Origin: a virus
Lineage: Duplodnaviria > Heunggongvirae > Uroviricota > Caudoviricetes
Length of the DNA stretch: 58,240 nucleotides
Virus record (IMG/VR): IMGVR_UViG_3300033075_001233
Location: 64,001 to 122,240 of that record
Direction: 5' to 3' (one strand)
How positions within the stretch are numbered: the stretch's first letter is position 1; each line of letters begins with the position of its first letter. The notes beneath the pieces are model-generated. The model did not search any database. It worked only from the letters and a program-made list of their open reading frames with translations, and was not told where the DNA came from. The translations under genes were made by a program, and so were the position numbers. Positions 35,301 to 57,080 of this stretch are shown here, piece after piece.

Positions 35301-35510
35301 TTAAAAAATCTCAGACTGTCTTAACGTTTTTATATTATTTGTTTGTTGTTGAGAATCAATATTATATCTTTTTTGAAGTTGTTTTACAAATGACATAATA
35401 TCTGATTCTTTCCCTTTAAGTTCTTGTAAATCATTCATTACCCACCAAAAGGCACGATGTTTAAATAGATCAGCTTTCGCTTCGATTATATCTTGTTCTC
35501 TTGTTTTCAT
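35301..35510 (-). CDS. Hypothetical protein
   Basis: TAATG coupling to UDG. Confidence 0.5.
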   Translation of the reverse strand: MKTREQDIIEAKADLFKHRAFWWVMNDLQELKGKESDIMSFVKQLQKRYNIDSQQQTNNIKTLRQSEIF

Positions 35511-36292
35511 TAAAATGGAAGAGATTTGTCTAAAAATTCATTATAATCCCAATATATCTCTATATCGTTATTAGCTTTTAGAATTTTAGCGGTTTTTGAA
35601 AATACATTATCTGCAAGCCATTCTTCATTTCTATTCCTCGCTGCAAAAGAAGGATGGTCTGTTTCTAGTATATAGTTACCTAATGGATTTATATACTTTT
35701 TTAATTTTCTAGCATACGCTCCCATTAGTATATACACTATACCAGTAGTACTATATAAAGCATTCTGAAATAAATGTTTCTGAAAAGATTCCCATAAATT
35801 AGCTGTAGGAAATACATCTTTACTTAGTTTTAGATGACTTTCTATTCTATTTTTTTCAACAGTAAGGCTTGTATTTAACAATAATACACCTTGTTCAGAT
35901 AAAAAATCTAAATTTGTTGAATATTTTAAATTTTCTAATTTAAGATCATTCTGTATTCCATGCCATAAATATTTCAAGGATGGTTGCATCTCTATATCTC
36001 CAGTGTAACTATTACTAAAGGCTAAGCCATCAGCTATAATTTTTCCATTTTTCACTGTAGAATATGGTTCCATACCTATAATTACAACACTCAATTCATT
36101 ATATTTACATTTATTAAATGCATTATATGTATCGGCATATATAGGAAATATATCAATTCCTTTATTACTACGAAACTTTAAATATTGATATATATTATAT
36201 GCATCCTCAGTTTCAAAGAAATCCTTCATTTTAGGCCACCACGATTCATGAAATTTTGGCTCAAATTTGCTTATATCCAGCTTATTACTCAT
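35510..36292 (-). CDS. ung: Family-1 uracil-DNA glycosylase-like protein
   Basis: VVIIGMEPY (GQDPY variant), DGLAFS, QPSL, QGVLLLNTSLTV, HPS. Confidence 0.88.
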   Translation of the reverse strand: MSNKLDISKFEPKFHESWWPKMKDFFETEDAYNIYQYLKFRSNKGIDIFPIYADTYNAFNKCKYNELSVVIIGMEPYSTVKNGKIIADGLAFSNSYTGDIEMQPSLKYLWHGIQNDLKLENLKYSTNLDFLSEQGVLLLNTSLTVEKNRIESHLKLSKDVFPTANLWESFQKHLFQNALYSTTGIVYILMGAYARKLKKYINPLGNYILETDHPSFAARNRNEEWLADNVFSKTAKILKANNDIEIYWDYNEFLDKSLPF

Positions 36293-37690: not shown

Positions 37691-38611
37691 TTAATAATCA
37701 TCACCTACCTCAGATGCAGGTTGTTTTGCTGTTTGACTTGCTGCTACATCATTTGCTGCATCATATTCAGATACAGGTGCTAATGGTGCATATCCACTTG
37801 GAGGATAATTTTTATGTGTTTCTTTATACTTATTCCAACGAGTTGTCATATATCCTTTAGGGAATTGACAATTATTGTTAATAAATTTAACAGAATCCTT
37901 ACTTAGTGTAGGCACTCCAAAATTGTTATTTGGAATCCATAATTTTTCATAATGTTCAGTGCCCTCTTTTGAGGTAGCTACTTGTAACATTACAACAAAG
38001 GGACGGAATAATTCACTCGTTAAATCTGCATAAAATTCCTGAACATTTCCTGTAAATAATTTCTTATAATTATAATTTAATTCTGCACTTGGTTTGTCAT
38101 AATCAAGTGCTAATGCTTCTCTCAAAAATCGAACAAGCATATCTTCACCTTTTAAACATTTTCTGAATGTTTTCTTATCATCTGTACTCTCATACCTTTT
38201 CTCATCATCATTCCATTTTTGGAAATACTTAAACCAATCAGGAAGCTCATCTTCAGATGGTACTTTTACCAATTGACCCACTTGATTTACAAATACGTAC
38301 AAATCAGGATTTCCATCCTTACCCTCAACAATAGCCGGTGTATTTTCTAAGAAAATACGATGTTTACGAGGTGTACTATCTTTAACATTTATTCGATAAT
38401 AAATGTCAAAATTAAGCTTATCATCACCTGCATCATTCTTACCCGTGTACTTAATGTCTTCACTCTCATCTGTAAGTTCATAGTTATACATTTTAGCTTT
38501 CTCTTCTTTTGTTGGATTGATTGCTACAATCTCCTCAACCAAAGCTAATCCTGCATACACTTTAAATCCATCTAATGCCTTACTTTGTTTTACATCTCCT
38601 TTTGCGCCCAT
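37691..38611 (-). CDS. Probable single-stranded DNA-binding protein
   Basis: Position between the AAA ATPase and primase; beta-rich core with aromatic residues; flexible acidic tail (..EVGDDY). Confidence 0.55.
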   Translation of the reverse strand: MGAKGDVKQSKALDGFKVYAGLALVEEIVAINPTKEEKAKMYNYELTDESEDIKYTGKNDAGDDKLNFDIYYRINVKDSTPRKHRIFLENTPAIVEGKDGNPDLYVFVNQVGQLVKVPSEDELPDWFKYFQKWNDDEKRYESTDDKKTFRKCLKGEDMLVRFLREALALDYDKPSAELNYNYKKLFTGNVQEFYADLTSELFRPFVVMLQVATSKEGTEHYEKLWIPNNNFGVPTLSKDSVKFINNNCQFPKGYMTTRWNKYKETHKNYPPSGYAPLAPVSEYDAANDVAASQTAKQPASEVGDDY

Positions 38612-42825: not shown

Positions 42826-43035
42826 TTAAAAAGGAAGGGGTTTATCCTTCACTGCAAATTTAGGGTTATTTATTCTATTTTTCGTTCTAATTTTATTAAA
42901 AAATAACCTCTTTTTTGCAGAATCATCTTTAAATCTTTGTAAATATTCAATTTCCTTATTATATATTTCTTCTTGTAAATCAATATTATCTTGCAGTTCT
43001 TCTTCTCTTATCTGCTCAAATAGTTGTTTATTCAC
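42826..43035 (-). CDS. Hypothetical protein ending KPLPF
   Basis: ORF packing. Confidence 0.5.
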   Translation of the reverse strand: MNKQLFEQIREEELQDNIDLQEEIYNKEIEYLQRFKDDSAKKRLFFNKIRTKNRINNPKFAVKDKPLPF

Positions 43036-43192: not shown

Positions 43193-43513
43193 TTAATTTA
43201 AAAATTCACTAGTTACTTCAATATCTTCTATTTTTATAAATAAATCTATACCAAAAGAACTATTAGCACTAATTATATATGCATATTTAGTACCCATTAT
43301 TTTAGCTATTTTATCATGTTTCCCATCTAAAGATTTGTTATTTCCACCTAAATATAGAAATCCATTACGAAAATCACTTAAATTAAAATCACCTCTTTCA
43401 TCATTTACACATCCTACTATTAGAGGTACATATTTCTTTGATTGTATACGGAAAACTTCTTTTCCTTCATATTTAACTAATTCATCATATGATTTTATCT
43501 TAACATAACTCAT
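43193..43513 (-). CDS. Small hypothetical protein (C-terminal SEFLN)
   Basis: ORF with an A-rich leader. Confidence 0.6.
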   Translation of the reverse strand: MSYVKIKSYDELVKYEGKEVFRIQSKKYVPLIVGCVNDERGDFNLSDFRNGFLYLGGNNKSLDGKHDKIAKIMGTKYAYIISANSSFGIDLFIKIEDIEVTSEFLN

Positions 43514-43527
43514 TTTAAAATAATTTT

Positions 43528-43845
43528 TTAATTAATAAATGATTCATCTACTTCAATTATATTCTCAGGAACAGCTAGTTTTAATAGTTTAGGAAAATCA
43601 GTACTTTTAGGTTTACCACCTTTGCCTATATTACACACCCATGACTTTTTCCATCCCTTTTTGTTTTTTGGAGAGCTTCCATTGTCGCCATTATTAAAGA
43701 GAACAAAGAAAGTAATTTGAGATGAATTTTGTGTTATTTGTGTTATTTCTCCATCTTGCTCTTCTTTATGACTGCTAATTATTACTCTCACTTTCGATCC
43801 TTCTGTAAAAGTTTGTCCGTTATATATAAACGATAAATTTTCCAT
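43528..43845 (-). CDS. Small hypothetical protein (C-terminal ESFIN)
   Basis: ORF with an A-rich leader. Confidence 0.6.
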   Translation of the reverse strand: MENLSFIYNGQTFTEGSKVRVIISSHKEEQDGEITQITQNSSQITFFVLFNNGDNGSSPKNKKGWKKSWVCNIGKGGKPKSTDFPKLLKLAVPENIIEVDESFIN

Positions 43846-43852
43846 AATTTTT

Positions 43853-44137
43853 TTAATTTAAAAATAAAGGTTCGTTGTCAATTGATTTACCTAAAATAAA
43901 ATGTAGAAATTCCTCTCTTGTAATTTTTTCGGAATGTTCTCTTATTCCTGAAAAAGTTAGTTGTGGATTTTTAGTAGTACCTATTTTAATATTATCATCA
44001 TTATGTGAAGAAATATATTCAAAAGTTCCACGAGTATATGTACCAGTTACTGTATTTACTTGTTTATTAAACCATATGCCTGCTTCAGGAACTTCTGTAG
44101 TGTTTATATACCACCTATCCGGTAATGATTCTCTCAT
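43853..44137 (-). CDS. Small hypothetical protein (C-terminal EPLFLN); MRE.LP..W start shared with 50854-51135
   Basis: MRESLPDRWY vs MREKLPEKWC, and ITREEF vs LTMEEF. Confidence 0.6.
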   Translation of the reverse strand: MRESLPDRWYINTTEVPEAGIWFNKQVNTVTGTYTRGTFEYISSHNDDNIKIGTTKNPQLTFSGIREHSEKITREEFLHFILGKSIDNEPLFLN

Positions 44138-44475
44138 TTGTAATGATTTAAAATGTTATCAAAATTTATAATTTCTCCAGAAATAATATTTCTAGTTCTC
44201 CATTCTCTTCCTTGTAAATACGGAGATGCATATTCATGTCGTATTTGACTTAATATATGATCCTTTGCTCCAGATGAAGTTCTAAATTTAGAATTCCACG
44301 AATCTTCAGTCCATTCATCTGTATATTCTTTTTTAGACATCCATCCTTTAGGATATTTCTCAAAATCTACACGAGAAATCCATTTATATTCTATCACCCA
44401 ATTCTTTTCTTTTTTTCTCTTCGATGGAGCACCAGCGTCTATTTCTCTTATAATTCGTTTTATATATTTTCTCAT
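44134..44475 (-). CDS. Hypothetical protein
   Basis: ORF packing. Confidence 0.55.
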   Translation of the reverse strand: MRKYIKRIIREIDAGAPSKRKKEKNWVIEYKWISRVDFEKYPKGWMSKKEYTDEWTEDSWNSKFRTSSGAKDHILSQIRHEYASPYLQGREWRTRNIISGEIINFDNILNHYK

Positions 44476-44478
44476 AAT

Positions 44479-46446
44479 TTAAAATAAATTAATTTGATTA
44501 GGGTCTTTTTTAATATTTTTTGGCTTTTTACCTGTACTAAGTCTATATATAAGCTTTTTGATCTCATCTATATACCATTCTCTATCTACTTTCTCTAAAT
44601 GTTCTTTATGAGTACTAGGCATAAGACTATTACATATAATTTTTTTATGTTCAGCAGGTCTGATATTAGCATCTGAGGCATTTGTATCGTTATCTTCTCG
44701 TACTATTTTCATCACTTTCACACCCTGTTTAGATACATAATATCTAATAAGTTTTGGTAAGGATTTCCACTTTTTCTCTTCTATATCATAATACTGATGA
44801 TAGTATGTATCTCCTGCTGTACTTCTTCCGCAAAAATGGAATATATTATCAAAAGAACTAACAAATTCTTCAGGTTGTACATTATTTATAAAATATTCAG
44901 ATAGTCCTAAAGGAATCACTCTGAAACTCTTGTTTTTATGCAACTCTGTATCAATTAAGAAATCACCTTTTCTTTTTACTTCACCGTCCATCTTAACAGC
45001 TAAATAATCATTCACTGTTAAAAACCACATATCTTTAAATTCTGCAAATTCTAGTGCATAACTTGTTAATTCACACCATTTTTTACATATTTCATAAAAT
45101 TTATCAATTTCTGTACGTTTTACCAAGAATGTAGCACCATCTGTATTACTCATAATACATTGATTTCTAGCTAATTCTTGGTCTTCGATTAGCATAAGGA
45201 TTGACATTTCTCCTGCTATACATATATTTAATCTGCATTGAGGGTCGTATAACCAATTACTCATATCTCCTGTTTTACCATAAACAGAATTTCCCATATT
45301 TTTGTACCCACTAACAATACCTTTTATCTTTTTATCTTTCTTAGATTCAGGTTTTAATCTTTCTCTTTCTTCAACTCCCCATTTATACGCATTTATAAAT
45401 GATTCTTTATTCAAATGAGCAGGAGAAAATTTATTATTTATAATAGTTCTTGCGTAGTATCCCGTTACGTCTGCGTCTATAATAATATATTCATCATCAG
45501 AATGATATTGCTTATTTTCAATAACATTATGAATTCCCCCAAGACCAACAGTATGTATCTGATTAAATACTCTTACAGATTCCTCAAATTCTTCAGCGGC
45601 TCCTATTTTTTTAGCTTTCATTCTTTGTAAAAACTCCTGTAATTCAGGAGTTTTAAAAGAGACATATTTAGGAATTCCCCACTTGAATTCTACAAATTTC
45701 CTAAAAGTTCCCTTTTTAGGAAGATTTGTATATGAAATATTATTATGTTCACAATAAAGTTTTTTAATTATTTCATCTCCCAATTTAGAATCAGAGTAAT
45801 TTAAACAATTAAATCCAAATTTTTCAGATATTGCTTCTCTTATTTCTATCTGATGATTACCTTTATATATAGTGTTATCAACCTCGCCTATTACATAAAG
45901 ATAATTTCTATAAGTGTTTAAAACGTCATTGTGGCAATAATAAATGAGGTCTTCCACTTCCTCTTGAGTAAAATCTTCTTTTAAATGACTAATCTTCATT
46001 TCTCGAACATCTTCTGCATCCATTTCATATTCAAGTCTTTTTAATCCTACTCTTCGATTTTTATTATCGAAGTGTTGAATCTTAAAGACATCAATAGGTT
46101 TAAAAGTTAATTGATCTTCACGAAAAGGCGGAAAACCTCCATTATTAGTTGCGTCTATTACATCTTGAGCATATTCCCATATTAGTGCAGCAATCTCCCT
46201 ACCTGATAATTTTTCCCATTTCTCATAATTTCTATAAATCCATTCGATCACTTGACCGTCAAATGTTAAATTATTAAATCCTACAAAATAATAGTAACTA
46301 TTATCATCTAAAAACTTAATAAGTTTATATAAATCATTTTGATATTGATTTATAATGAAATCAATCCATTTTCCTGTTTCAGGAACAAACACACTTATCA
46401 AAAAACAACCTTTTGGGGTTTCTATATCATGCACTAATATCTTCAT
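44479..46446 (-). CDS. Family B DNA polymerase with 3'-5' exonuclease
   Basis: Exo motifs HDIET, GFNNLTFD and YCHND; Pol motifs DADVTGYYA, KNMGNSVYGK and SNTDG. Confidence 0.92.
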   Translation of the reverse strand: MKILVHDIETPKGCFLISVFVPETGKWIDFIINQYQNDLYKLIKFLDDNSYYYFVGFNNLTFDGQVIEWIYRNYEKWEKLSGREIAALIWEYAQDVIDATNNGGFPPFREDQLTFKPIDVFKIQHFDNKNRRVGLKRLEYEMDAEDVREMKISHLKEDFTQEEVEDLIYYCHNDVLNTYRNYLYVIGEVDNTIYKGNHQIEIREAISEKFGFNCLNYSDSKLGDEIIKKLYCEHNNISYTNLPKKGTFRKFVEFKWGIPKYVSFKTPELQEFLQRMKAKKIGAAEEFEESVRVFNQIHTVGLGGIHNVIENKQYHSDDEYIIIDADVTGYYARTIINNKFSPAHLNKESFINAYKWGVEERERLKPESKKDKKIKGIVSGYKNMGNSVYGKTGDMSNWLYDPQCRLNICIAGEMSILMLIEDQELARNQCIMSNTDGATFLVKRTEIDKFYEICKKWCELTSYALEFAEFKDMWFLTVNDYLAVKMDGEVKRKGDFLIDTELHKNKSFRVIPLGLSEYFINNVQPEEFVSSFDNIFHFCGRSTAGDTYYHQYYDIEEKKWKSLPKLIRYYVSKQGVKVMKIVREDNDTNASDANIRPAEHKKIICNSLMPSTHKEHLEKVDREWYIDEIKKLIYRLSTGKKPKNIKKDPNQINLF

Positions 46447-46452
46447 GTTCTC

Positions 46453-47295
46453 TTATTTTAACAACTTTTCTAAATTCAGAAGCTCATCATCATCCATATT
46501 ATTAAATTCAACACCCTCATTTCTAATTGTATCACATAATTCAATAAATTCGTTTACGTTTTTAAATTGACCTGAACTTACAACTTTTGTGAGCAATTTC
46601 TGAATATCGTTAATAATGTTATCACCGTAATCTTCTCTGATTGTTATTAATGTATCCAGAGTGTTAGAATCGTCATAATCTTTAAGTACATCAATAAATA
46701 CACCAGCCTGCCCTTTTTTCATCCTAACACTACCACATCCAAAACTTACTGTGTCTTTTGTTACAGTGACAGAATGACCTTCTACTGTTACCATTTTATG
46801 AGCATTAATAATAGCAATCTGTCTTTTATCTTTTACAATTTCAAATGTAGAGAAACCAAAAGCATCTTTTATGGTTTGTGTTTTTATATCCCAACTTTCT
46901 TCCTGATATGTAGGAAATCCGTGAAAAGCATCAGCGTCTTCATTTTCTTCAACTAAATTTGTTCCAGCTAAAACAGCAATATCTTCATAATAATCAGTGA
47001 CAACACCGCAACATTTTGCAGCATTGCCTCTTACACCTTTTTTAGTAGCGATAAAATAGTCACCATCTTTAATTTTTATCACTTCCAGTTTTTTAGCAGG
47101 AGCTTTATATAGATCAAATCTATCAACATCCACAAATTCATTAACAGCACGTTCACCTGTTACATAGATATAATCAGTACCTGTAACTTTTACTACTTTT
47201 CCAATCCATCCCGGTTTTGTAATAGTATAACAACTAGCTAACTGATTGCCAACCACTTGATCACCCACTTTAAATTTTGCAACTTTTTTTGCCAT
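46453..47295 (-). CDS. Hypothetical protein with an N-terminal KOW/SH3-like segment
   Basis: KFKVGDQVVG...GKVVKV. Confidence 0.6.
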   Translation of the reverse strand: MAKKVAKFKVGDQVVGNQLASCYTITKPGWIGKVVKVTGTDYIYVTGERAVNEFVDVDRFDLYKAPAKKLEVIKIKDGDYFIATKKGVRGNAAKCCGVVTDYYEDIAVLAGTNLVEENEDADAFHGFPTYQEESWDIKTQTIKDAFGFSTFEIVKDKRQIAIINAHKMVTVEGHSVTVTKDTVSFGCGSVRMKKGQAGVFIDVLKDYDDSNTLDTLITIREDYGDNIINDIQKLLTKVVSSGQFKNVNEFIELCDTIRNEGVEFNNMDDDELLNLEKLLK

Positions 47296-47314
47296 TTTTT
47301 TAACTTTTTAATTA

Positions 47315-47710
47315 TTAATTAATTTTTGCATATATTTTGTCCACATAATCAGGAAAATAATTGAGAAGGCAGGGACAAAGCCATCCTTCAATATCAGTAC
47401 CATCTAATAAATACATTCCTTCTACATCGGAATTTTTAATTCTACTCAAACTGAGTGTAAAGTTAGGAATAATATCTTTAGAAATATAAATTTCTAATGA
47501 TTTTTTACCATTTGAGTACATATCAATCATAACATTAATATCTCCTACAAATGGTTCACCCACAATACCTAGATCATCATCATCAAATGACCATACGCCA
47601 TACTTGTTTCTTTTTGGATAAATTACATTTACTTGATTATTAGCCTTGGTTTTCTGAATAGTACCACCTCCAGATGGACCATCTAATAAAATGTCATAAT
47701 TTTTTTTCAT
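47315..47710 (-). CDS. Conserved phage hypothetical protein (DUF6717-like)
   Basis: IYP..NKYGVWSFDD..GIVGEPFVG, ending GWLCPCLLNYF. Confidence 0.55.
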   Translation of the reverse strand: MKKNYDILLDGPSGGGTIQKTKANNQVNVIYPKRNKYGVWSFDDDDLGIVGEPFVGDINVMIDMYSNGKKSLEIYISKDIIPNFTLSLSRIKNSDVEGMYLLDGTDIEGWLCPCLLNYFPDYVDKIYAKIN

Positions 47711-47924
47711 AATTTTTAATTAATATATAAAGAAAATTCATCAACTGTTATTTCAAATATAGGTACAAACTTACCAGCTTGAATACAAGCTAAAAGCCAA
47801 TTACATTCTTTTTCTGTAGCTGGTTCATATTCTGTATCAGAAAAATATCCATTTTTATACCATCATTTATTCTGTCAATTAACATTTGTAAAGGCGTGTT
47901 CATGTGTTTAGTTTTTAGTGTTTA

Positions 47925-48167
47925 AAGATTCCCGATGTAGACATAACGGGAGTTTGCTATATGTCCACCGTATGAAAAAAAATACCGTCTGTCAATCAGG
48001 AGTTTTACCTAAGTAGTGATTTCTCGTTCCTGCTAATTGCATATCGCTTAGGGCTTGCTGCATAATTGCAGATGGTAAAAGAACTTAGGTAGCGTATTCG
48101 TGCCAACTTTGCTGCCTCCGTTGTTAATTTCACTCAGTTATGAGTGTAGCACTTATTTTCACCCGTT
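47925..48167 (-). ncRNA. Candidate structured non-coding RNA of unknown class
   Basis: ORF-free, GC-richer than the flanks, with nested complementary segments (TAACGGG/CCCGTTA, TACCTAAGT/ACTTAGGTA, CACTCA/TGAGTG, CTGCA/TGCAG). Strand assumed from the neighbours. Confidence 0.45.
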
Positions 48168-48170
48168 AAT

Positions 48171-48422
48171 CTATTTTATAGTTAAATATTCCGCAATTAA
48201 CCTAATTTCTTGATTATCAGCATCTTCTTTACTTAATCCTGCAAAAATAATTTCTTTAATTACTTCCTTCCAGTCATATTTTACTATAGTATTATGTAAA
48301 AGTGGTTGTCTTTTAGTTTGCTTTTTTTCATATTGCTTAAATCTTTTGGTTAAGTTAGTAGACTGACCAATGTAAACTTTCCCATTAGGAAAGGTTAATT
48401 TATATATAATGTAGCTTTTCAT
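48171..48422 (-). pseudogene. Truncated GIY-YIG endonuclease (catalytic domain only)
   Basis: YIIYKLTFPNGKVYIGQS...EIRLI, stopping at 83 aa; own TAGCTTTG element at 48433-48426. Confidence 0.65.
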
Positions 48423-48463
48423 GCTACAAAGCTAAGTAAAAGAAATGGTATTACCAAATATAT

Positions 48464-48757
48464 TTAAGAAAAATTAATCATTTCTTTTACTTTCAAAATA
48501 GATTCTTTATTAATTGTAGAACCTATAATTATATCAGGATTGTGATAATTACTACAACTTATACAAGGGCCACGATATGGAGTATGATCGTCACAATTTG
48601 GACGAGTTAAATCTTTTGTTTCAGCTTCTTCAGCACATTTATCTATCACTGCTTCTACTATTTCTTTAATAGCTGCTTTTACATACATAGTTGTATGATC
48701 TACAAGGGGGTATGGTAGATGTTTATCAAGAATTGCTTCTATATTAATGTTTTCCAT
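48464..48757 (-). CDS. Hypothetical protein with a Cys/His insert
   Basis: ORF; CDDH...CISC. Confidence 0.55.
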   Translation of the reverse strand: MENINIEAILDKHLPYPLVDHTTMYVKAAIKEIVEAVIDKCAEEAETKDLTRPNCDDHTPYRGPCISCSNYHNPDIIIGSTINKESILKVKEMINFS

Positions 48758-48892
48758 ACTAAATAAGTTTATTCATCATCATCATCATGAGAACATACAC
48801 AATTATAGTATATTCTACCACAATCAAGACAATAATTTCCAGAACTATCTGGTCTGAAAAAGTTTTTTATTTTTTTAAATAATATTATCATG

Positions 48893-49069
48893 TTAAGAAA
48901 GTTTTAACTTTGGAAATAAGAGCTTTCTGTCTTTAGGCCACATATTTGCAATGTATTCCTTTTGAACTTGTTTCAATGTCTTTGTATCAGTTTCAGACAA
49001 TCTGTCATATTGAGCTTTCAATACAGCTTTCTTATAAGCTGGATTAGCGTTTCTTGCAAATTTTGCCAT
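48893..49069 (-). CDS. Small basic hypothetical protein (58 aa, not in the ORF track)
   Basis: MAKFARNANPAYKKAVLKAQY...KLKLS-stop, read by hand. Confidence 0.5.
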   Translation of the reverse strand: MAKFARNANPAYKKAVLKAQYDRLSETDTKTLKQVQKEYIANMWPKDRKLLFPKLKLS

Positions 49070-49234
49070 GTTAAATAAGTTTTAATGTTTCTTCAATAGC
49101 TTTATTCCAAGCCTTTTCTCTTGTTGGAAATTCTCCTTGAGCAAATATAATTTTTTCATATTATAATTTAAAAAGTTTATTAAAATAATACTCTACCCAC
49201 ATTATAAAAGCTACTATTCTTTTTGTAAACTTTG

Positions 49235-49471
49235 TCATGTAATATTTTCTTTTGGATTATAATACTTCATTTTAGTTTTATTAGGATTTCTACCTGATAA
49301 CATTGCACAAAGTGTACTGCTTACTACATTAATGCTTTTAGCTGCTTGTTTTATAGAATTAAATATTTCTTCAGTTTCAGTATTTTCATATTTTACTTTA
49401 AACAGCCATTTAATAAAAATGCTTAAAACAATTGCAACAGATGCAATAAATGTAATAATTTCTAATATCAT
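49235..49471 (-). CDS. Chimeric ORF: N-terminal TM segment plus a NUMOD1-like remnant
   Basis: TEEIFNSIKQAAKSINVVSSTLCAMLSGRNPNKT resembles homing-endonuclease C-terminal HTH domains. Confidence 0.5.
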   Translation of the reverse strand: MILEIITFIASVAIVLSIFIKWLFKVKYENTETEEIFNSIKQAAKSINVVSSTLCAMLSGRNPNKTKMKYYNPKENIT

Positions 49472-49491
49472 ATTTTAAAATTTTTTAATTG

Positions 49492-49830
49492 CTATATCCA
49501 ATATTTGTCATAGAATTGTTTGTCTATTAATATATTATCTAACTTTTTCTTCGCTACATCTATAGCAATATCGTAAGATTTGTTAGGATAAGCTGGTGAT
49601 TTCTTTATATTTTCAAGTTCAGATATATCATAATTTGATACTTTTGACCAAAATTTATCGTCAATTTTATATTCTGGAGTACCTGAAAATATAAATAAGC
49701 TACTTACACTAAATTCGATACATCCTTGTGGTATTTTTGTAATTCCTGTAATACCTACTCTATTTTTATATTCTATATAACGAAGAGTAACTAAATCAAA
49801 TAATTCTGGAGGTAATTCTTTAAGTTTCAT
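49492..49830 (-). CDS. Paralogue 3 of the KxLPxEL...TPE..FW...YPxS...FYxKYWI family
   Basis: Shared motifs with the two upstream copies; ATG at 49830 overlaps the upstream TGA. Confidence 0.7.
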   Translation of the reverse strand: MKLKELPPELFDLVTLRYIEYKNRVGITGITKIPQGCIEFSVSSLFIFSGTPEYKIDDKFWSKVSNYDISELENIKKSPAYPNKSYDIAIDVAKKKLDNILIDKQFYDKYWI

Positions 49831-50129
49831 ATCCAATATTTATCGTAAAATTCTTTATCTGATATATTTGATCCTGATTTAGGATAACATGACATTTCTC
49901 TAGCTTCATCTAGTTTATCATCATGGACTATGCTCCAAAAAGTACCTCCTTCTGGGGTTTCACTTCAAGTAAATAAATTAAATACATTATCTTCAAGAAT
50001 ATCATGCCTTGGTATAATATCTGCTACATTGTATATTCTTCCTGTTCTTCGTAATTTATATATCTCACATTCCTTATATCTCAATATAGCAAGATCACGT
50101 AATTCCGGTGGAAAATCTTTAATTCTCAT
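49827..50129 (-). pseudogene. Paralogue 2 of the same family, interrupted by an in-frame TGA at codon 55
   Basis: MRIKDFPPELRDL...LFT*SETPEGGTFW...CYPKS...EFYDKYWI; TGA at 49967-49965 aligns with Trp in paralogue 1. Confidence 0.75.
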
Positions 50130-50455
50130 ATCCAATATTTATTATAAAAATCAATTTCAGTTATTTGTTTATCTATTTCATCATCATCAAAGAATGCTTT
50201 ACGAGCAGATTTAGGATATGCTGGAGATTTAAATACATAACTCATATTACCCTCATTTACTTTACTCCAAAAATTATAGTCTATACCATGTTCAGGAGTT
50301 TCTCTCCATGTAAATAAACAGCCTACATTCCATTCATATGATTCCGAAGGTAGGCTATTACAAGAAAGATTACCTTCTCTTCTTTTTTGTTGAACATATC
50401 TTGCTTCTATCAACGCAATTAATTCAGATGGTAGGTCTTTAATTGGTGTCGCCAT
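50126..50455 (-). CDS. Paralogue 1 of the same family
   Basis: IKDLPSEL...LFTWRETPE...FW...AYPKS...FYNKYWI. Confidence 0.7.
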   Translation of the reverse strand: MATPIKDLPSELIALIEARYVQQKRREGNLSCNSLPSESYEWNVGCLFTWRETPEHGIDYNFWSKVNEGNMSYVFKSPAYPKSARKAFFDDDEIDKQITEIDFYNKYWI

Positions 50456-50629
50456 ATATCATAAATTTATAATATAATAATTTCTTTCAGTGATAAATTT
50501 AAAAGTATATCCACAATCTTTCAGTTCTTCTTTTTCAGATTCTGTAAGTGTCTTAATTGTTATATTTTTGATTCCTTTAATCTTAGCAGTGTTTAGTTTA
50601 TACTTTAATTTTTCACAAATCATAGATAA

Positions 50630-50857
50630 TTAATTTTCAAATTGATATAATGGGTCTTTTAGTTTGTTATACTCAACCAACAAAGCGTCATAATCATTTT
50701 TAAGTAAATAATAGTCATCTTCGAGTGATGAAAGTTCATCGTTTATAGAATCTAGCTTTTTTTCCAATTCTTCATTCTCTTTTTTTAAATCTGCAATTTG
50801 ATTTTCAAGATCATCAATATGTGATCTTACGTCATCAAGTATATCCATAAATATCAA
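50630..50857 (-). CDS. Small coiled-coil protein
   Basis: Continuous heptads. Confidence 0.55.
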   Translation of the reverse strand: MIFMDILDDVRSHIDDLENQIADLKKENEELEKKLDSINDELSSLEDDYYLLKNDYDALLVEYNKLKDPLYQFEN

Positions 50858-51135
50858 TTTAAAAATTCAGGAATAGGATCATTATCTTGTATATGAAGCA
50901 CTAATCTTTTAAATTCTTCCATTGTTAATTCTTCATATCCTTCACGAATAACTGGACAACTATAAATCCTAGCCCAATGTCTAGATAGTTCTAATGCAGA
51001 ATGAAAATATCTACCATTATAGACTTTATGTTTTACATAATCACTTGATGCATTAGGCATTGTTAAAAAGAACTTTTGTACAATTTTTGTGTTATCTGCT
51101 TTTACACACCATTTTTCGGGAAGTTTCTCTCTCAT
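50854..51135 (-). CDS. Small hypothetical protein (C-terminal PEFLN)
   Basis: ORF; related to 43853-44137. Confidence 0.6.
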   Translation of the reverse strand: MREKLPEKWCVKADNTKIVQKFFLTMPNASSDYVKHKVYNGRYFHSALELSRHWARIYSCPVIREGYEELTMEEFKRLVLHIQDNDPIPEFLN

Positions 51136-51150
51136 AATAATTTTAATTTA

Positions 51151-51187
51151 AAAAATAGTGCCCCAGAATCTATCTGAGGCACTATTT
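51151..51187 (-). terminator. Intrinsic terminator
   Basis: AAATAGTGCC...GGCACTATTT stem with a T-rich tail on the - strand. Confidence 0.8.
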
Positions 51188-51209
51188 AAAAGTTTAATAA
51201 AATGCAAAA

Positions 51210-51572
51210 TTATGCATCAACTTCAGCGGAAGCTTCTTTCAGCAGACCTTCAAAGAATTCAATTGAATCTTTAGTTGCTGTCAGGGTATCCTGCGCTGTT
51301 TGCAGCCTTTCATAATAAATTTTCACATTCTGTACGAATGCCTTATTATCATTAATAACTGTTTTGGGGTACTTAGCTTTGTTGTAGTTTTCCTGAGCTT
51401 CTTCTACATTTACTTCATCATCCACGAGTTTTGCTCTCAAAGCTGCGAGTTGGCTGCTATAAGCAGAATCAGCTTTACGGGCATTACGCAGGGCGATTTC
51501 AGTGTTTTCATCACCTTTCAATTGGGCCAGCACTTGTTTTGCGAAGTTTGTTACTTTTTGTGTTGTTGTCAT
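51210..51572 (-). CDS. Helical hypothetical protein with high-expression codon usage
   Basis: CTG/CGT/ATC/AAC codons; followed by a terminator. Confidence 0.7.
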   Translation of the reverse strand: MTTTQKVTNFAKQVLAQLKGDENTEIALRNARKADSAYSSQLAALRAKLVDDEVNVEEAQENYNKAKYPKTVINDNKAFVQNVKIYYERLQTAQDTLTATKDSIEFFEGLLKEASAEVDA

Positions 51573-51616
51573 TTTGTTTGTTTTTTAAATGATTAATAAA
51601 AAATGAAAAATTTTTG

Positions 51617-53422
51617 TTATAATATTACCAATTTTTGCTTTTTTGGTGTGGTTTTTACAATCATAGGAGACTGAAATTCAAGACCATCATCTACATCACT
51701 ATATGATATCCCACTACTTAATTTTGAAGGATATGAACCATCATCATGTATATATTCAGAGGTTTTAGATTCAGCTTTTCTAAATTTCCTTAAATTATAG
51801 TATGAATAAAAACCATTAGCTTTTATGAAAAACAATCCTCTGTCTGATGTACCACTATCAATTCCATAGCATATATACCCATCAATAATTGCAATTTTAT
51901 GTATAACAACCTTAGATAGCCATATACCAATTCCGCTAACCCATCTTGGATTACCAGCTTGATTATAAAATTGATTACCTATTATATTACTATACTCATT
52001 AACTATATTCCCATCTAAGTTATCACCTATATTGAATCCACCATGTGCCGTTATACTTAGATAACTCACTCTTGATACTGTGGTTGTTGGTGATGATGGT
52101 GGTGATTTATGTACTACTTCATCATCAAAAGATTTTAAAAATTTAACATATCCTTCAGCTAATATCCACACATTTGAAGTACCAGATACAAGAAAACACA
52201 CTTTATCTTCTATCATTCCTATTTTTGCGACATGTCTATCTCCTATAAAATGGCTTGAACCTACTCCTATAAATGAAGAACCATCATAATAGTTTTTATA
52301 TTGAGATACCCATTTATTTAAATCTTTTGCATAAAGTATAGACCCCACTACATATCCATCATAACTGTCTAATGTCATCATACTATCTTCTTTTTTAGCT
52401 GGTTCATCTGCTGGAATAAGAAACTTTTCAGGAAAATATTTCCTTTCTGCTTTTTCTATTTCTGAAGGTGTAGCAGGTCTTAGATTAGATTTCTTCCAAC
52501 AAGCACCTGAGCATGTAGTTTTTTCCGATGCATAATACATATCACCACTAAACCCTTTCTTTCCATCATATTGAAATACATGACCTATCACTCCACTATA
52601 TGCGCCACCGTTTGGGTCTATAAGATTATCTATGACATACCAATTATTATGAATCATTTCAAAGCTGGAAGGTTTTGATGCAATATAAGTGGTAGGACTA
52701 AATCCTTCAGGCATTAATTCTACACTTCTCTCTCTAAAAGATTCTTCTGCTTTGTCCTTTGATACATATGTAAATTTACCAGCATAATCAAATATATACA
52801 CTGATGTACCATCATCTTTCTTTATTTCGTAATATTGTCCTTCTTTTACAGCAGCTCGATTTGCATTATCTTTTAATGCTTTAAGATATCTTCCTACAAA
52901 TGATGATGATGTCTTTTCAGGAACTTTTTCTACACTTTTTTCAGGTGGTGTAAATCCAATTGGCATTATTCTGAATCCTCGTATTTCTTCTCCAGCTAAA
53001 AATCTTGGTGTTTCAGATTCATTTCCTAAATAATTACCATTTTTTAATTTATAGAAACCAAAATGCGTATCAAAGCTGTCAATTTGAACATAATCACCTT
53101 TTTTTACCATATAACCATCCACTGTACATCCATTTGCACCATATACTAAGCATTCAAACCATCTTCCTATAATTGATGCTGATGTTGATATTTTATCAGG
53201 ATGTCCATCAGGTAGGAATTTAGAATATTCTTCGGGAGAAGCTTCACTAAGATAATAAGTTCCTCCCCATGAACCATATTCTTTAGAATAACCACCTTTA
53301 TATATTCTTTCATCATAATCTATATTTTCTCCATCAACACCGTCTCTTTTGGCTTTGCAAAAATCATGTTGAGTTGACCACGATGTATTTTTATACCATT
53401 TTCCTTTTACATAATTTGCCAT
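51617..53422 (-). CDS. Large mosaic hypothetical protein of short aromatic-rich modules
   Basis: 601-aa ORF with modules separated by S/P/K linkers. Confidence 0.7.
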   Translation of the reverse strand: MANYVKGKWYKNTSWSTQHDFCKAKRDGVDGENIDYDERIYKGGYSKEYGSWGGTYYLSEASPEEYSKFLPDGHPDKISTSASIIGRWFECLVYGANGCTVDGYMVKKGDYVQIDSFDTHFGFYKLKNGNYLGNESETPRFLAGEEIRGFRIMPIGFTPPEKSVEKVPEKTSSSFVGRYLKALKDNANRAAVKEGQYYEIKKDDGTSVYIFDYAGKFTYVSKDKAEESFRERSVELMPEGFSPTTYIASKPSSFEMIHNNWYVIDNLIDPNGGAYSGVIGHVFQYDGKKGFSGDMYYASEKTTCSGACWKKSNLRPATPSEIEKAERKYFPEKFLIPADEPAKKEDSMMTLDSYDGYVVGSILYAKDLNKWVSQYKNYYDGSSFIGVGSSHFIGDRHVAKIGMIEDKVCFLVSGTSNVWILAEGYVKFLKSFDDEVVHKSPPSSPTTTVSRVSYLSITAHGGFNIGDNLDGNIVNEYSNIIGNQFYNQAGNPRWVSGIGIWLSKVVIHKIAIIDGYICYGIDSGTSDRGLFFIKANGFYSYYNLRKFRKAESKTSEYIHDDGSYPSKLSSGISYSDVDDGLEFQSPMIVKTTPKKQKLVIL

Positions 53423-53435
53423 TGTTTTTTAAAAT

Positions 53436-53747
53436 TTAATAATGAAAACTTAAAAATTTGTACAAAGTACTCTCCTTTGGAATTACAAATTCAGGAGTTG
53501 TACTTTTCTTAACAGGAGCTTTTCCCAACATTAACATTTCTCTGATTTCCTGTTTTCTTGCTTCAGAGTACTTATATCCATATTTAAGATAATTTTTAAG
53601 TGTATTATTCTTATCACATGGAGATTTGTTAAACACTTTTGTTTCTACAGGAATAATTTGACCTGTATGAAAATTGATTCTTGGTTGAAACCGGTATATA
53701 ACTCTTGTATATCCGAGTTTTTGGATTGGGGAGAGTGTTCTTTTCAT
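53436..53747 (-). CDS. Hypothetical protein
   Basis: ORF. Confidence 0.5.
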   Translation of the reverse strand: MKRTLSPIQKLGYTRVIYRFQPRINFHTGQIIPVETKVFNKSPCDKNNTLKNYLKYGYKYSEARKQEIREMLMLGKAPVKKSTTPEFVIPKESTLYKFLSFHY

Positions 53748-53815
53748 ATTTAGATTTATTTAATGTGTCCATTAATCATCCATGAATATAAACAAATTAC
53801 AAGTAGCATTCCTAT

Positions 53816-53846
53816 AAAAGGAAGCACCCAACTTAACGGGTGCTTC
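53816..53846 (-). terminator. Hairpin/terminator
   Basis: GAAGCACCC-N8-GGGTGCTTC. Confidence 0.6.
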
Positions 53847-53883
53847 ATGTTGTCATATTTGCTTACGGTCCTTTTTTTCATTG

Positions 53884-54156
53884 TTAATTAGTTATCCTTA
53901 TAGGAGTCTCCAATTGGTATTGAGGTATATTCAGCACCTTTTTTGGAACATTTCCTTTAAAGTGGTGTCTTAAAAATAGTTTGTGTTTATATTTTGCAGC
54001 AGCTTTATCCAATTTCTCCTCTTTTGTATGTTTAAACACGCTGTAATCTACAGCATTTGTAAAAGCAGGTGTTCCTATACTAATCGGAGCATACCCATCA
54101 TTAAAGGTATTGAATCTCTGCCTGATTGTGATTTCACTGATTGAGCCTCTTGACAT
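53884..54156 (-). CDS. Hypothetical basic protein
   Basis: ORF with an A-rich leader. Confidence 0.55.
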   Translation of the reverse strand: MSRGSISEITIRQRFNTFNDGYAPISIGTPAFTNAVDYSVFKHTKEEKLDKAAAKYKHKLFLRHHFKGNVPKKVLNIPQYQLETPIRITN

Positions 54157-54194
54157 AATTTTAAATTTTAAAAGTTATTTAATTGAAAATTGTT

Positions 54195-54491
54195 TTAACG
54201 GAAGGATGTTACAAAAACAACCTGATATCCGCAGTATTTGGAAAGAAAATCAATCTTTCCCTTACTTTTATTACCAATATCACCCTTTCCATTGGGTTCT
54301 TTTAAAATTTCAATTTTCTTGTTGGCTCCGCTAACACGACAGTCGTGTTTTTGATTAAGTGCATGTACTACACTTGTTTCTTCATAATTTCTCTGTTTCA
54401 TCGTTTTTTTAGTTTTAAAAACTTTACACAGAATGTGTATAATTTTAGTTAATAAATAAGGGTTCTGTTTCTCTTGGTTGTGCCAATTCAA
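54195..54491 (-). CDS. Hypothetical protein (start probably MKQRNY)
   Basis: KGKIDFLSKYCGY C-terminus; the track start is probably over-extended. Confidence 0.5.
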   Translation of the reverse strand: MNWHNQEKQNPYLLTKIIHILCKVFKTKKTMKQRNYEETSVVHALNQKHDCRVSGANKKIEILKEPNGKGDIGNKSKGKIDFLSKYCGYQVVFVTSFR

Positions 54492-54708
54492 TACATCCTC
54501 CTTCTATAAGAGAATCTAATGACCAACCTCCGTTTTTTATAGAAATGGCTATATGATTTCCTCTGTTAATCATATCTTCAATAATTGCCTCAAAAGGATA
54601 CGTTACACGATCTCTTACATCCATAAAAAATCCGGGTCCTGATGACCATTGTTTAGGTCTTTTAATAATTCTTACTAAATCGCCTTTTTTAAAATCACTT
54701 GTTATCAT
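54445..54708 (-). CDS. Small KOW/SH3-like protein (C-terminal EPLFIN)
   Basis: FKKGDLVRII. Confidence 0.6.
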   Translation of the reverse strand: MITSDFKKGDLVRIIKRPKQWSSGPGFFMDVRDRVTYPFEAIIEDMINRGNHIAISIKNGGWSLDSLIEGGCIELAQPRETEPLFIN

Positions 54709-54854
54709 AATAATTTTTTTAAAACTAAACTATAGTATCATAGGCCAAATAGGACTAAATTTACAAAGCCCTTGCTCAAATGATTTTATGAGCGCATCTT
54801 GGGTTATATGATTCCCTCATCTCTTATTTCATAGAAATACTACAATTTAGTTAA

Positions 54855-55127
54855 TTAGTTTATAAATAGAGGTTCGTCCTCCGTTTCTTCAAGAAATTCA
54901 AAAGCATTATGTATTATACACCCTCTTTCAACACCCTGTTCACGAGTATTCCATCCACATCCAGTAGAATAGAGATATATAGTATTGTAACCATGCTCCA
55001 TATATCTACCTATTGCAAAATGATGAGGATTAATTAAATGAGCAATATCATCAAACTCTTTTGCATTTTTGCAGTAGATACCATTTTTACCATCTGCTGT
55101 TTTATAGTCATTTACATTTTTCTTCAT
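54855..55127 (-). CDS. Small hypothetical protein (C-terminal EPLFIN)
   Basis: ORF. Confidence 0.6.
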   Translation of the reverse strand: MKKNVNDYKTADGKNGIYCKNAKEFDDIAHLINPHHFAIGRYMEHGYNTIYLYSTGCGWNTREQGVERGCIIHNAFEFLEETEDEPLFIN

Positions 55128-55141
55128 AGTTAAAAAGAATT

Positions 55142-55177
55142 AAAAAAAGGAGGGTGAAAATAACACCCTCCCCTTTT
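55142..55177 (-). terminator. Intrinsic terminator
   Basis: GGAGGGTG-AAAATAA-CACCCTCC flanked by A/T runs. Confidence 0.8.
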
Positions 55178-55207
55178 ATTCATACAATTCAACACAATTT
55201 CAGACAA

Positions 55208-55669
55208 TTACCCGGCGAATTTTTCCATTTTCTTCAGGAGAAGAGCTTTACGATCTTCTTTATCCATCAGTTCTTCAGCTTCTTTCTTCAGAGCATTCAG
55301 TTCATCGAGCTGGTCTTTCTGTTCGATGATTTCAATGCGGAGCTGGATATCACTTTTCCATTCTTCAACAGTACCACCATCAATTTTTACTACAGGGTAG
55401 TTGGTGATGCCCAGTACTTCATAAGCCTGTTCCATAGACTGAGCACGAACAAGGATACCAGAAAAGGCTTTCACCAGTTCAGCGGGGCTTGTTTGTGTTT
55501 TAATGTCCATTTCACCGGATGCTGTTCTCACTTTACCATTTGTTTTGTAAACACTGTCAGCGATATGTTTCATACGGCTGATTTTTTGGTTGAGTGATGT
55601 CAGGAATTCAGGTACTGAAGAATCAGGACGGAGTGCAATTGCTGTTTCTTTTTTGTCGTTCTTTGCCAT
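55208..55669 (-). CDS. Helical hypothetical protein with high-expression codon usage
   Basis: CTG/CTC/CGT/ATC codons; followed by a terminator. Confidence 0.7.
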   Translation of the reverse strand: MAKNDKKETAIALRPDSSVPEFLTSLNQKISRMKHIADSVYKTNGKVRTASGEMDIKTQTSPAELVKAFSGILVRAQSMEQAYEVLGITNYPVVKIDGGTVEEWKSDIQLRIEIIEQKDQLDELNALKKEAEELMDKEDRKALLLKKMEKFAG

Positions 55670-55716
55670 TTTGATTTGATTTTTAAAATTATTAATAATT
55701 GTGAAAAAAGATGTTT

Positions 55717-55920
55717 TTAATTAAGAAATTCCATAGGTACAGAATTATCTAAAGATATATCTATCAATAAGAAAAACAAAGGATCATATTCACCACCAAC
55801 TTCCATTAAATATAAACTAGGTCCATTTTGATACTTCACTGTATATATAGAACCTATTTTTACATAGGCATAATCACTGCTAGTTCTAATAACTTTTTGT
55901 CCATTTTTAAATTCTGCCAT
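55717..55920 (-). CDS. Small SH3-like protein (C-terminal MEFLN)
   Basis: FKNGQKVIR...G.IYTV...YDP..F.L. Confidence 0.65.
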   Translation of the reverse strand: MAEFKNGQKVIRTSSDYAYVKIGSIYTVKYQNGPSLYLMEVGGEYDPLFFLLIDISLDNSVPMEFLN

Positions 55921-55926
55921 AAAAAA

Positions 55927-56148
55927 TTAATTTATAAATTGTATTAATATATCTTCATGAGATACATTCTCTTCTTTTTTAGAAACGAGTGTAAAAAATG
56001 AAGGTTCATAGCTACTACCAACATTAACTAATAATAAAGTGCTAGTAGTACACATTTCTACAGTGTAGATTTCACCTTTTTTAACACAACCTCTGTCATC
56101 TTCTATCCTTAATACTCTGTCTCCGGGATTGAATAATGGTTTTCTCAT
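55927..56148 (-). CDS. Small SH3-like protein (C-terminal QFIN)
   Basis: FNPGDRVLR...GEIYTV...YEP..F.L; paralogous to its neighbours. Confidence 0.65.
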   Translation of the reverse strand: MRKPLFNPGDRVLRIEDDRGCVKKGEIYTVEMCTTSTLLLVNVGSSYEPSFFTLVSKKEENVSHEDILIQFIN

Positions 56149-56151
56149 AAA

Positions 56152-56478
56152 TTAATTTATAAATTCATTAAACATTTCAACATTAGTATTAGAAGTTGGA
56201 GATTTTCTCCAAGGAGGCTCAGTGTATTCACCTGTTTCAATACAGTTAAAAAACCAGTTCATCGTATCCACATCCGTTACTTCTTCAAATTCTACACTCG
56301 GAGATGTAAGATGTATCTCAGATTTAACAGTTGTAAATACATCCTTTTTATGCGTATGTATTATGTTTTCAGTACCATATTGCTTTTGGAAATAAGATAG
56401 TCCTGAACCATACTTTGATGTTTCTATAGGAAACTTTGCAATATATATAACATGATCAATTGTTGATTCTTTTTTCAT
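56152..56478 (-). CDS. Small hypothetical protein (C-terminal NEFIN)
   Basis: ORF. Confidence 0.6.
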   Translation of the reverse strand: MKKESTIDHVIYIAKFPIETSKYGSGLSYFQKQYGTENIIHTHKKDVFTTVKSEIHLTSPSVEFEEVTDVDTMNWFFNCIETGEYTEPPWRKSPTSNTNVEMFNEFIN

Positions 56479-56484
56479 TTTTAT

Positions 56485-56682
56485 TTAATTTAAAAATTCA
56501 GGAATAAACGTAGAATCAGAAGATTCTACTACTATAAAAGCACTTGCATCATAGCTTCTATAATTATCTTCTACTAAACATAATACATTATTAGAAGCGA
56601 CACTAGCTACTGTATATATTTCTCCATATTGAGCTATTCCAAATGAATCTTTTATTCTTTTTATTTTATCTCCGGGTTTCAT
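56485..56682 (-). CDS. Small SH3-like protein (C-terminal PEFLN)
   Basis: MKPGDKIKR...GEIYTV...YDA..F. Confidence 0.65.
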   Translation of the reverse strand: MKPGDKIKRIKDSFGIAQYGEIYTVASVASNNVLCLVEDNYRSYDASAFIVVESSDSTFIPEFLN

Positions 56683-56927
56683 ATTATTTTAGTTGTTATA
56701 GATGAATAATATTGATTTAATTTCTCTGTATATATTGAATTGGGAATGTAAACATGATTTTTCGAGAAAATTACAGCCACTTTAGGAATAAGAAAATCCA
56801 GTTTTTCTGTAATTATTCTATATACAGCAGGGTAATCATCAGAATAATAACAATTTGTTTTCTTAATGCGAATTTTTGCATTAGATGGATAATTGAAATA
56901 TAATTTTGTTGTAGATGATCCACTCAT
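56679..56927 (-). CDS. Hypothetical protein
   Basis: ATGA overlap. Confidence 0.45.
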   Translation of the reverse strand: MSGSSTTKLYFNYPSNAKIRIKKTNCYYSDDYPAVYRIITEKLDFLIPKVAVIFSKNHVYIPNSIYTEKLNQYYSSITTKII

Positions 56928-57080
56928 AAAATGATTTTTTAGATTAAATACGATTTATCTCCCTCTGTATCTTCATCAATACTCTCAGTAATTTCTTGTG
57001 CTATGTAAATTGCTAATAATATAACAATTATACATAAAATTATTTTGGCAAGCATAAGTAATTGAATTTTAATAGATTAT

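Follow-up and report, generated by a model that had tools for sequence, protein, structure and literature searches.

A short C-terminal peptide shared by mostly unrelated small early proteins of a presumed crAss-like phage, probably a docking tag

Why should ten small phage proteins of largely different sequence all end in nearly the same three residues? The question is raised by a 58,240-nucleotide (nt) stretch of viral DNA, hereafter the window, which covers bases 703-58942, on the reverse strand, of a virus record of 73,225 bp (IMG/VR IMGVR_UViG_3300033075_001233) that we take to be an uncultured crAss-like phage; whole-genome counts given here cover the full 73,225 bp. A sequence-only reading of the window had proposed that ten proteins of 65-108 amino acids (aa) carry a C-terminal F-[LI]-N signature, and all ten predicted open reading frames (ORFs) are indeed present on the minus strand with F-[LI]-N-stop ends (Table 1; we name the genes by their low coordinates, which mark the stop codons). 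An acidic or proline residue ahead of the motif, also part of that reading, is seen as E at position -4 in five tails and P at -5 in five. No further called gene in the genome ends this way, the plus-strand block included, as had been claimed for that block; the sole additional ORF with such an end is a 71-aa antisense ORF at 46355-46570. We consider it probable that F-[LI]-N-COOH serves as a short linear peptide tag that selection on the protein maintains; most likely, it lets small modules dock on a single common partner.

The tails are far too numerous to be a product of composition. From genome amino-acid frequencies, 0.046 F-[LI]-N ends are expected among 96 genes, against ten observed. 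The 12-nt tail pattern occurs in 20 copies on the two strands compared with 5-7.5 in Markov simulations, the surplus being exactly the ten gene ends; an enrichment test of this kind had been proposed beforehand. The description of the tails as sitting on largely different sequences needs some correction. All-against-all BLAST places seven of the genes in three small paralogue groups, 55717/55927/56485 (family A), 43853/50854 (family B) and 54445/54855 (family C), and leaves three singletons, so the ten genes represent about six unrelated bodies. Even for at least six independent events, the Poisson probability is ~1e-11. The tailed genes belong to the replication/early block on the minus strand, with the genes for polymerase, helicase and RecA as neighbours and the structural genes elsewhere, and the tail is found on no structural protein of the genome.

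One further copy of the motif, at 51143, was considered as a gene end and ruled out: it belongs to an intrinsic terminator, whose T-run, together with the AAATTAA after it, mimics the tail-coding 12-mer by chance. The terminator-like element itself, a GC-rich hairpin with a T-run at 51146-51190 (minus strand), lies between genes 51210-51572 and 50854-51135.

Is it the peptide that is conserved, or the DNA beneath it? Within the window the tail is written in varied codons (Leu as TTA four times and CTT once, Ile as ATT twice and ATA three times, Asn as AAT eight times and AAC twice, stop as TAA nine times and TGA once), in proportions that match genome-wide codon usage. Across 33 tailed genes from the window and its relatives (L001/G001, L007, L008, L010 and L011), ten distinct 12-mers encode the tail, with TTT or TTC for Phe, TTA, CTT, CTC, ATA or ATT for the aliphatic residue, AAT or AAC for Asn and TAA or TGA as stop; one orthologue pair has ATA against CTC at the aliphatic position. 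F-[LI]-N is thus preserved through synonymous variation with its residue class kept, which was a second check proposed beforehand. Both F and N were retained in 24 of 24 orthologue comparisons, and L and I were exchanged in three. In the same comparisons the bodies were 31-92% identical, with a ratio of non-synonymous to synonymous differences (pN/pS) of 0.33-0.86, and the seven-residue linkers shared anywhere from 0 to 7 positions. The tail always lies in one reading frame, though frame 3 of these bases has a stop too. Nothing is conserved in the sequence 3' of the tail stop, and the E and P residues upstream are conserved as amino acids.

The tail also appears to lie outside the folded part of its carriers. 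An AlphaFold2 model of the 65-aa protein (54 sequences) gives a five-stranded small barrel over residues 1-52, with a predicted local distance difference test (pLDDT) score of ~96, and renders the last 13 residues as coil without secondary structure (pLDDT 55-66); in this model, then, the tail hangs on a low-confidence linker beyond the fold. The family A alignment is good except in the linker, whose length varies by 9-19 residues. The barrel is weakly similar to KOW/SH3-like domains (expectation value (E) ~0.01, template modelling (TM) score 0.66). By eye, two larger proteins of the same minus-strand block, of 280 aa (46453-47295) and 601 aa (51617-53422), seem to contain repeated small-barrel modules of G-D-x-V type like those of families A and C, and the family A profile also matches multi-repeat proteins elsewhere, with up to ten matched stretches.

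Further evidence comes from more distant relatives, in which the same domains carry other tails. The family A profile has 187 protein matches among 1.8 billion representatives; close relatives end in EFLN, and distant single-domain members bear other recurrent tails, for example ELIFESL, E[DE]LFTL, INFLP, YELW, x-W-L and Y-x-I-[FY]. In other crAss-like lineages the tails are [LI]FN, NYEI[FY], YSIF, INFLP and IFESL, with one tail type per genome. Thus 21 genes end in [LIM]FN in L015/G002, 12 in Y[ED]I[FY] in L016/G003, five in SIF in L017/G004, five in INFLP in L018 and two in YSIF in L020. No other C-terminal tripeptide comes near the tail in frequency in the genomes G002, G003 and G004, where the tailed genes are clustered. 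F-[LI]-N is the form taken in this lineage by a wider pattern, with a particular tail type for each genome, carried by 2-21 small proteins. When the last eight residues were trimmed from all ORFs of seven loci and the bodies were clustered, family A, a 'DLPxEL' family and a third cluster each united genes of different loci, and every member of these clusters has the tail type of its own genome. A comparison of family B with genes of L015 and L017 gave a weak hhalign probability of 50-56%, and we do not use it as evidence.

Within the window the DLPxEL family is represented by three paralogues on the minus strand that begin ..DLPxEL.. (49492-49836, 49965-50135, which is truncated, and 50126-50455). 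The two untruncated copies end in FY[DN]KYWI and have no F[LI]N tail; shorter homologues in L015 and L017 bear the tails of those genomes (PQIFN and NEYSIF).

Because the codons vary synonymously and by several bases at once, the frame is fixed, the tail persists despite drift of bodies and linkers, it lies outside the modelled fold and it is swapped between lineages, these comparisons of sequences indicate that the tail is kept by selection on the protein and not on the DNA. Of the earlier proposal of a shared docking, degron or sorting tag, the protein-level tag common to varied small domains holds up on the evidence of codon variation, drift and tail swapping; docking, degradation and sorting would each fit these data. 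In the account we prefer, the tag, usually preceded by P-E or E-P-L, would hang from a flexible linker at the C terminus of unrelated small non-structural proteins and would bring all of them, as modules, to a common partner. At each junction the 12-30 tail-coding bases would in addition provide microhomology for the gain and loss of whole genes, as a side effect or a second use, and new modules could acquire the resident tag through this junction microhomology.

If this account is true, a shared tag that changes with lineage would link at least a tenth of a genome's non-structural genes (ten here, up to 21 in a relative) into one system that could be attacked at a single point. Crassvirales rank with the most abundant of known phages, and the function of most of their small early genes is unassigned; knowing what reads the tail would give dozens of orphan families a role together. 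The tag is also a simple experimental handle.

What might read the tail? Two proteins inside the array of tailed genes are themselves without a tail, one of 153 aa and one of 68 aa (Table 1). The sequence-only reading had mentioned neither the conserved 153-aa gene nor the recombination breakpoints described below. A search with the 153-aa family returned 49 homologues and led to L015/G002, L016/G003, L017/G004, L018 and L020, at each of which the tailed genes closely surround the homologue. In every lineage examined a homologue lies in or beside the array: in the window and in L008, L011, L013, L014, L015, L016, L017, L018 and L020. L013 and L014 were fetched by way of family A and not of the 153-aa protein: in L014, three INFLP-ended genes are followed by a 153-aa homologue (30% identity, E 2.5e-20), and in L013, with tail ELIFESL, a homologue comes directly after the tailed genes (E 3e-4). 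Within the 153-aa family, tail type tracks sequence similarity. When the proteins of the full genome are compared by tblastn with the complete 164-kb genome G003, only 13 find a match: the virion RNA polymerase, the cargo protein, a 179-aa protein, a glycosyltransferase, RecA, uracil-DNA glycosylase (UDG), primase, a protein like single-stranded DNA-binding protein (SSB), the DnaB-like helicase, the polymerase, a metallophosphatase, and the 68-aa and 153-aa proteins. These last two are the only ones of unassigned function among the 13, and both lie in the array.

On these grounds of gene order and conservation the 153-aa protein is the best, though still tentative, candidate for the tail reader. 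A host protein is a somewhat better prospect, although it too falls short of being likely, and the remaining odds go to a conserved replication protein or to the 68-aa protein, which is the weaker of the two candidates from the array. The 153-aa model has no convincing fold match by Foldseek against the PDB (best E 0.8), only generic helical hairpins in a wide VIA search (best Z 5.8), two matches of ~150 aa in the AlphaFold DB that are without name or doubtfully named, and no usable match in the ESM Atlas. A complex prediction for the 153-aa protein with the 65-aa tailed protein scored 0.00, controls were not run, and the result counts neither way. Two other ideas were set aside. The segment VPEFLTSLN near the N terminus of the 153-aa protein looks like a tail mimic; because no counterpart in other lineages resembles the local tail, we treat it as chance. 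The phage's ubiquitin-like cassette as a general tail reader was rejected: its presumed E1-like enzyme, the 440-aa protein at 32210-33532, finds no match in G003, a genome that does have a tail array.

A fuller version of the scheme, in which changing small effector modules are gathered through the tag by the 153-aa protein as their dedicated receptor, tag and receptor co-evolve in each lineage and the tag bases act as a plug-in seam, is doubtful. If true, such a platform of receptor and tagged effectors would be without a described counterpart in phage biology, and literature searches found no published description of lineage-specific tails of this kind.

Several points weigh against docking on a shared partner, and particularly against the 153-aa protein in that role. 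First, a degron or a sorting signal would leave an identical sequence signature. Second, breakpoints fall in tail-coding DNA, as described below, so these bases matter for genome dynamics too. Third, the association between the 153-aa protein and the array could be plain conserved gene order, and the parallel divergence of the 153-aa family and the tail type is expected from shared descent alone. Fourth, three of the loci were fetched via the 153-aa protein itself and so carry an ascertainment bias. Finally, a marginal 153-aa homologue in L019 (E 3.7e-5) has no array beside it.

Table 1. Tailed genes of the window and the two tail-less genes inside their array
Gene	Coordinates	Strand	C-terminal end	Group	Remarks
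106-aa tail gene	43193..43513	-	SEFLN	singleton body	orthologues in L001 and L007 end GNEFLN, linker changed
105-aa tail gene	43528..43845	-	ESFIN	singleton body	orthologues end DTLFIN
94-aa tail gene	43853..44137	-	EPLFLN	family B	EPLFLN kept in five homologues, 62-66% identity
93-aa tail gene	50854..51135	-	IPEFLN	family B	paralogue; stop TGA; homologues end IVEFLN, INEFLN; Phe is TTC in L008
68-aa protein	54195..54401	-	no tail		inside array; 50% identical match in distant complete genome G003; no Pfam family
87-aa tail gene	54445..54708	-	EPLFIN	family C	Asn is AAC; 43 nt to next start
90-aa tail gene	54855..55127	-	EPLFIN	family C	Asn is AAC; 146 nt to next gene
153-aa protein	55208..55669	-	no tail	phrog_2574	inside array; mostly helical plus one beta-hairpin (model)
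67-aa tail gene	55717..55920	-	MEFLN	family A	small beta-barrel; Leu is CTT
73-aa tail gene	55927..56148	-	IQFIN	family A	L011 orthologue TEFLN (ATA to CTC); absent from L010
108-aa tail gene	56152..56478	-	NEFIN	singleton body	
65-aa tail gene	56485..56682	-	IPEFLN	family A	barrel 1-52, linker and tail 53-65

Among the alternatives, the one that survives best is a C-terminal degron read by a host protease of the Clp, Lon or Tsp kind, by which early proteins would be cleared together later in infection; we nevertheless think it unlikely. The logic of C-terminal degrons is established from the ssrA tag and lambda proteins, and an exposed hydrophobic peptide on what is modelled as a flexible linker, at the end of small proteins from a non-structural block, would suit it well. 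However, the recognition rules of housekeeping proteases are conserved, and the tail type shifts sharply between related phages. Sequence comparison also finds in the tails no non-polar end of the L-A-A-COOH type, by which ClpX or SspB reads ssrA-like degrons. To our knowledge, known bacterial C-terminal degrons end in non-polar residues, unlike the strictly kept terminal Asn found here.

Another possibility is that the conserved element is a DNA or RNA signal at gene junctions, either a recombination seam or, if the host lacks Shine-Dalgarno sites, an AT-rich region for stop and restart, and that the peptide is incidental. The sequence-only reading had offered a form of this as its alternative, namely selection for an AT-rich initiation region of the next gene. 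The motif is AT-rich and includes its own stop, and a start codon follows 3-14 nt after seven of the ten tails. Yet those starts have no fixed register, the spacing to the next start ranges over 3-146 nt and in three of the ten cases no start lies closer than 43 nt; since the codons are also at genome-average usage and only 8 of 88 other genes have three AT-only final codons, the initiation-region proposal fails. A junction signal in general must further contend with the ten 12-mers, the multi-base codon changes that keep residue class, the constant frame, the lack of conservation past the stop and the upstream E and P conserved as residues, and the hydrophobic or aromatic tails of other lineages use quite different bases. 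We regard it as quite improbable that the peptide is incidental.

An argument for a junction signal comes from relatives that differ in gene content. Genes 56152, 55927 and 55717 are missing from L008, whose two blocks of homology to the window share only the 16 tail-coding bases; gene 55927 is missing from L010, where the shared part is 29 bases long and spans tail, stop and start. As the blocks of both relatives meet inside these bases, gene gain and loss between relatives breaks exactly in tail-coding sequence, and the tail, judged from these alignments, is also a recombination seam. The breakpoints suggest a route by which unrelated genes could gain the resident tag and, more broadly, how phages enrol new genes into the tag system. 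A likeness may be drawn to the PeSL cassettes of T4-type phages, reportedly mobile non-coding units of promoter and stem-loop that are conserved as DNA: in both cases, short repeats lie between small early genes at the points where genes come and go. The F[LI]N repeat differs in being coding, with variable synonymous sites, a single frame and no conserved flank beyond the last codons.

A sorting or packaging signal that loads small proteins into the virion or another phage assembly seems very unlikely. It would account for many unlike proteins with one short terminal peptide, in one version per phage lineage, and crassviruses are known to package cargo proteins (PMC10136315). Against it, the genes lie in the replication/early block and not in the structural block, and no structural protein bears the tail. 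Cargo peptides of T4 and of encapsulins serve structural compartments, and the T4 capsid targeting sequence is N-terminal and cleaved. The signals of T4 internal proteins and of encapsulin cargo resemble the F[LI]N tail in being one short terminal peptide used as an address label on unrelated proteins, and differ from it in that the F[LI]N genes belong to a non-structural block. A common ancestor of all ten genes, with the tail as its last recognizable trace, is barely credible: the three paralogue groups and tandem arrays would fit, but the six body groups have no detectable similarity, the same bodies bear other tails in other genomes and the tail is far better kept than the bodies.

Docking of the tagged proteins on one partner has precedents in replication. 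The bacterial SSB tip (D-D-D-[IL]-P-F) and the beta-clamp-binding motifs (Q-L-[SD]-L-F and Q-L-x-L-x-L) are likewise short peptides of hydrophobic or aromatic character; they follow a flexible acidic linker at or near the C terminus and bring many unlike proteins to one partner. Their carriers are replication enzymes, whereas the F[LI]N carriers are small proteins of unassigned function. The sequences differ as well: the tails read [PE]-[EL]-F-[LI]-N, with no Q at position 1 and no terminal L-F as in clamp-binding motifs, and a terminal Asn in 33 of 33 tails, with no P-F as in the SSB tip. Closer to home, the tails of T4 gp43, gp33 and gp55 bind the gp45 clamp, and the acidic, Phe-ended tails of T7 gp2.5 and gp4 dock on gp5. 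There too a C-terminal tail is common to phage proteins of different function and is read by one phage-encoded partner. T4 and T7 have two or three carriers, however, compared with ten to twenty-one for the F[LI]N and related tails, and the type of these tails depends on the lineage. In sequence, F[LI]N matches neither the T4 nor the T7 tails.

The same minus strand contains a second class of tails, separate from F[LI]N, that resemble beta-clamp-binding motifs or SSB tips: the polymerase ends in QINLF (44479-44496), the UDG in DKSLPF (35510-35527) and a 69-aa protein in DKPLPF (42826-42843), all of them conserved in G001 and L007. A 306-aa protein at 37691-38611 (minus strand), without a Pfam family, has an acidic aromatic end, GDDY, like the T7 gp2.5 tail.

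The assignment to a crAss-like phage is consistent with giant ORFs of 3417 and 2306 aa, ~30% G+C and starts without Shine-Dalgarno sites. Single small proteins used as queries found no relatives in IMG/VR or the phage collection, the polymerase found no match in JGI metagenomes, and neither Pfam nor PHROGs placed a tailed protein or the 153-aa protein in an informative family. Most relatives were reached via profile searches; of the related fragments, L001/G001 was found via the polymerase and L007, L008 and L010 via profile matches to family B, and L011 was added. No RNA runs are listed among the public runs that hold window positions 54000-57000. Public riverine-metagenome runs from one study contain 22-74% of the sampled words from this segment, which points to a freshwater habitat for the phage.

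Finally, the relatives have some features of their own. In G001 the polymerase ORF is split by ~325 nt (L001 3161-3485) and the DnaB-like helicase ORF by an insert with a 264-aa GIY-YIG-like ORF (L001 7371-8333); both genes are intact in the window, and the splits are probably intron or homing-endonuclease insertions. The early block of L008 holds a 104-aa gene (2188-2502) with a precomputed Pfam match to MIB_HERC2, a small barrel domain of eukaryotic E3 ligases.

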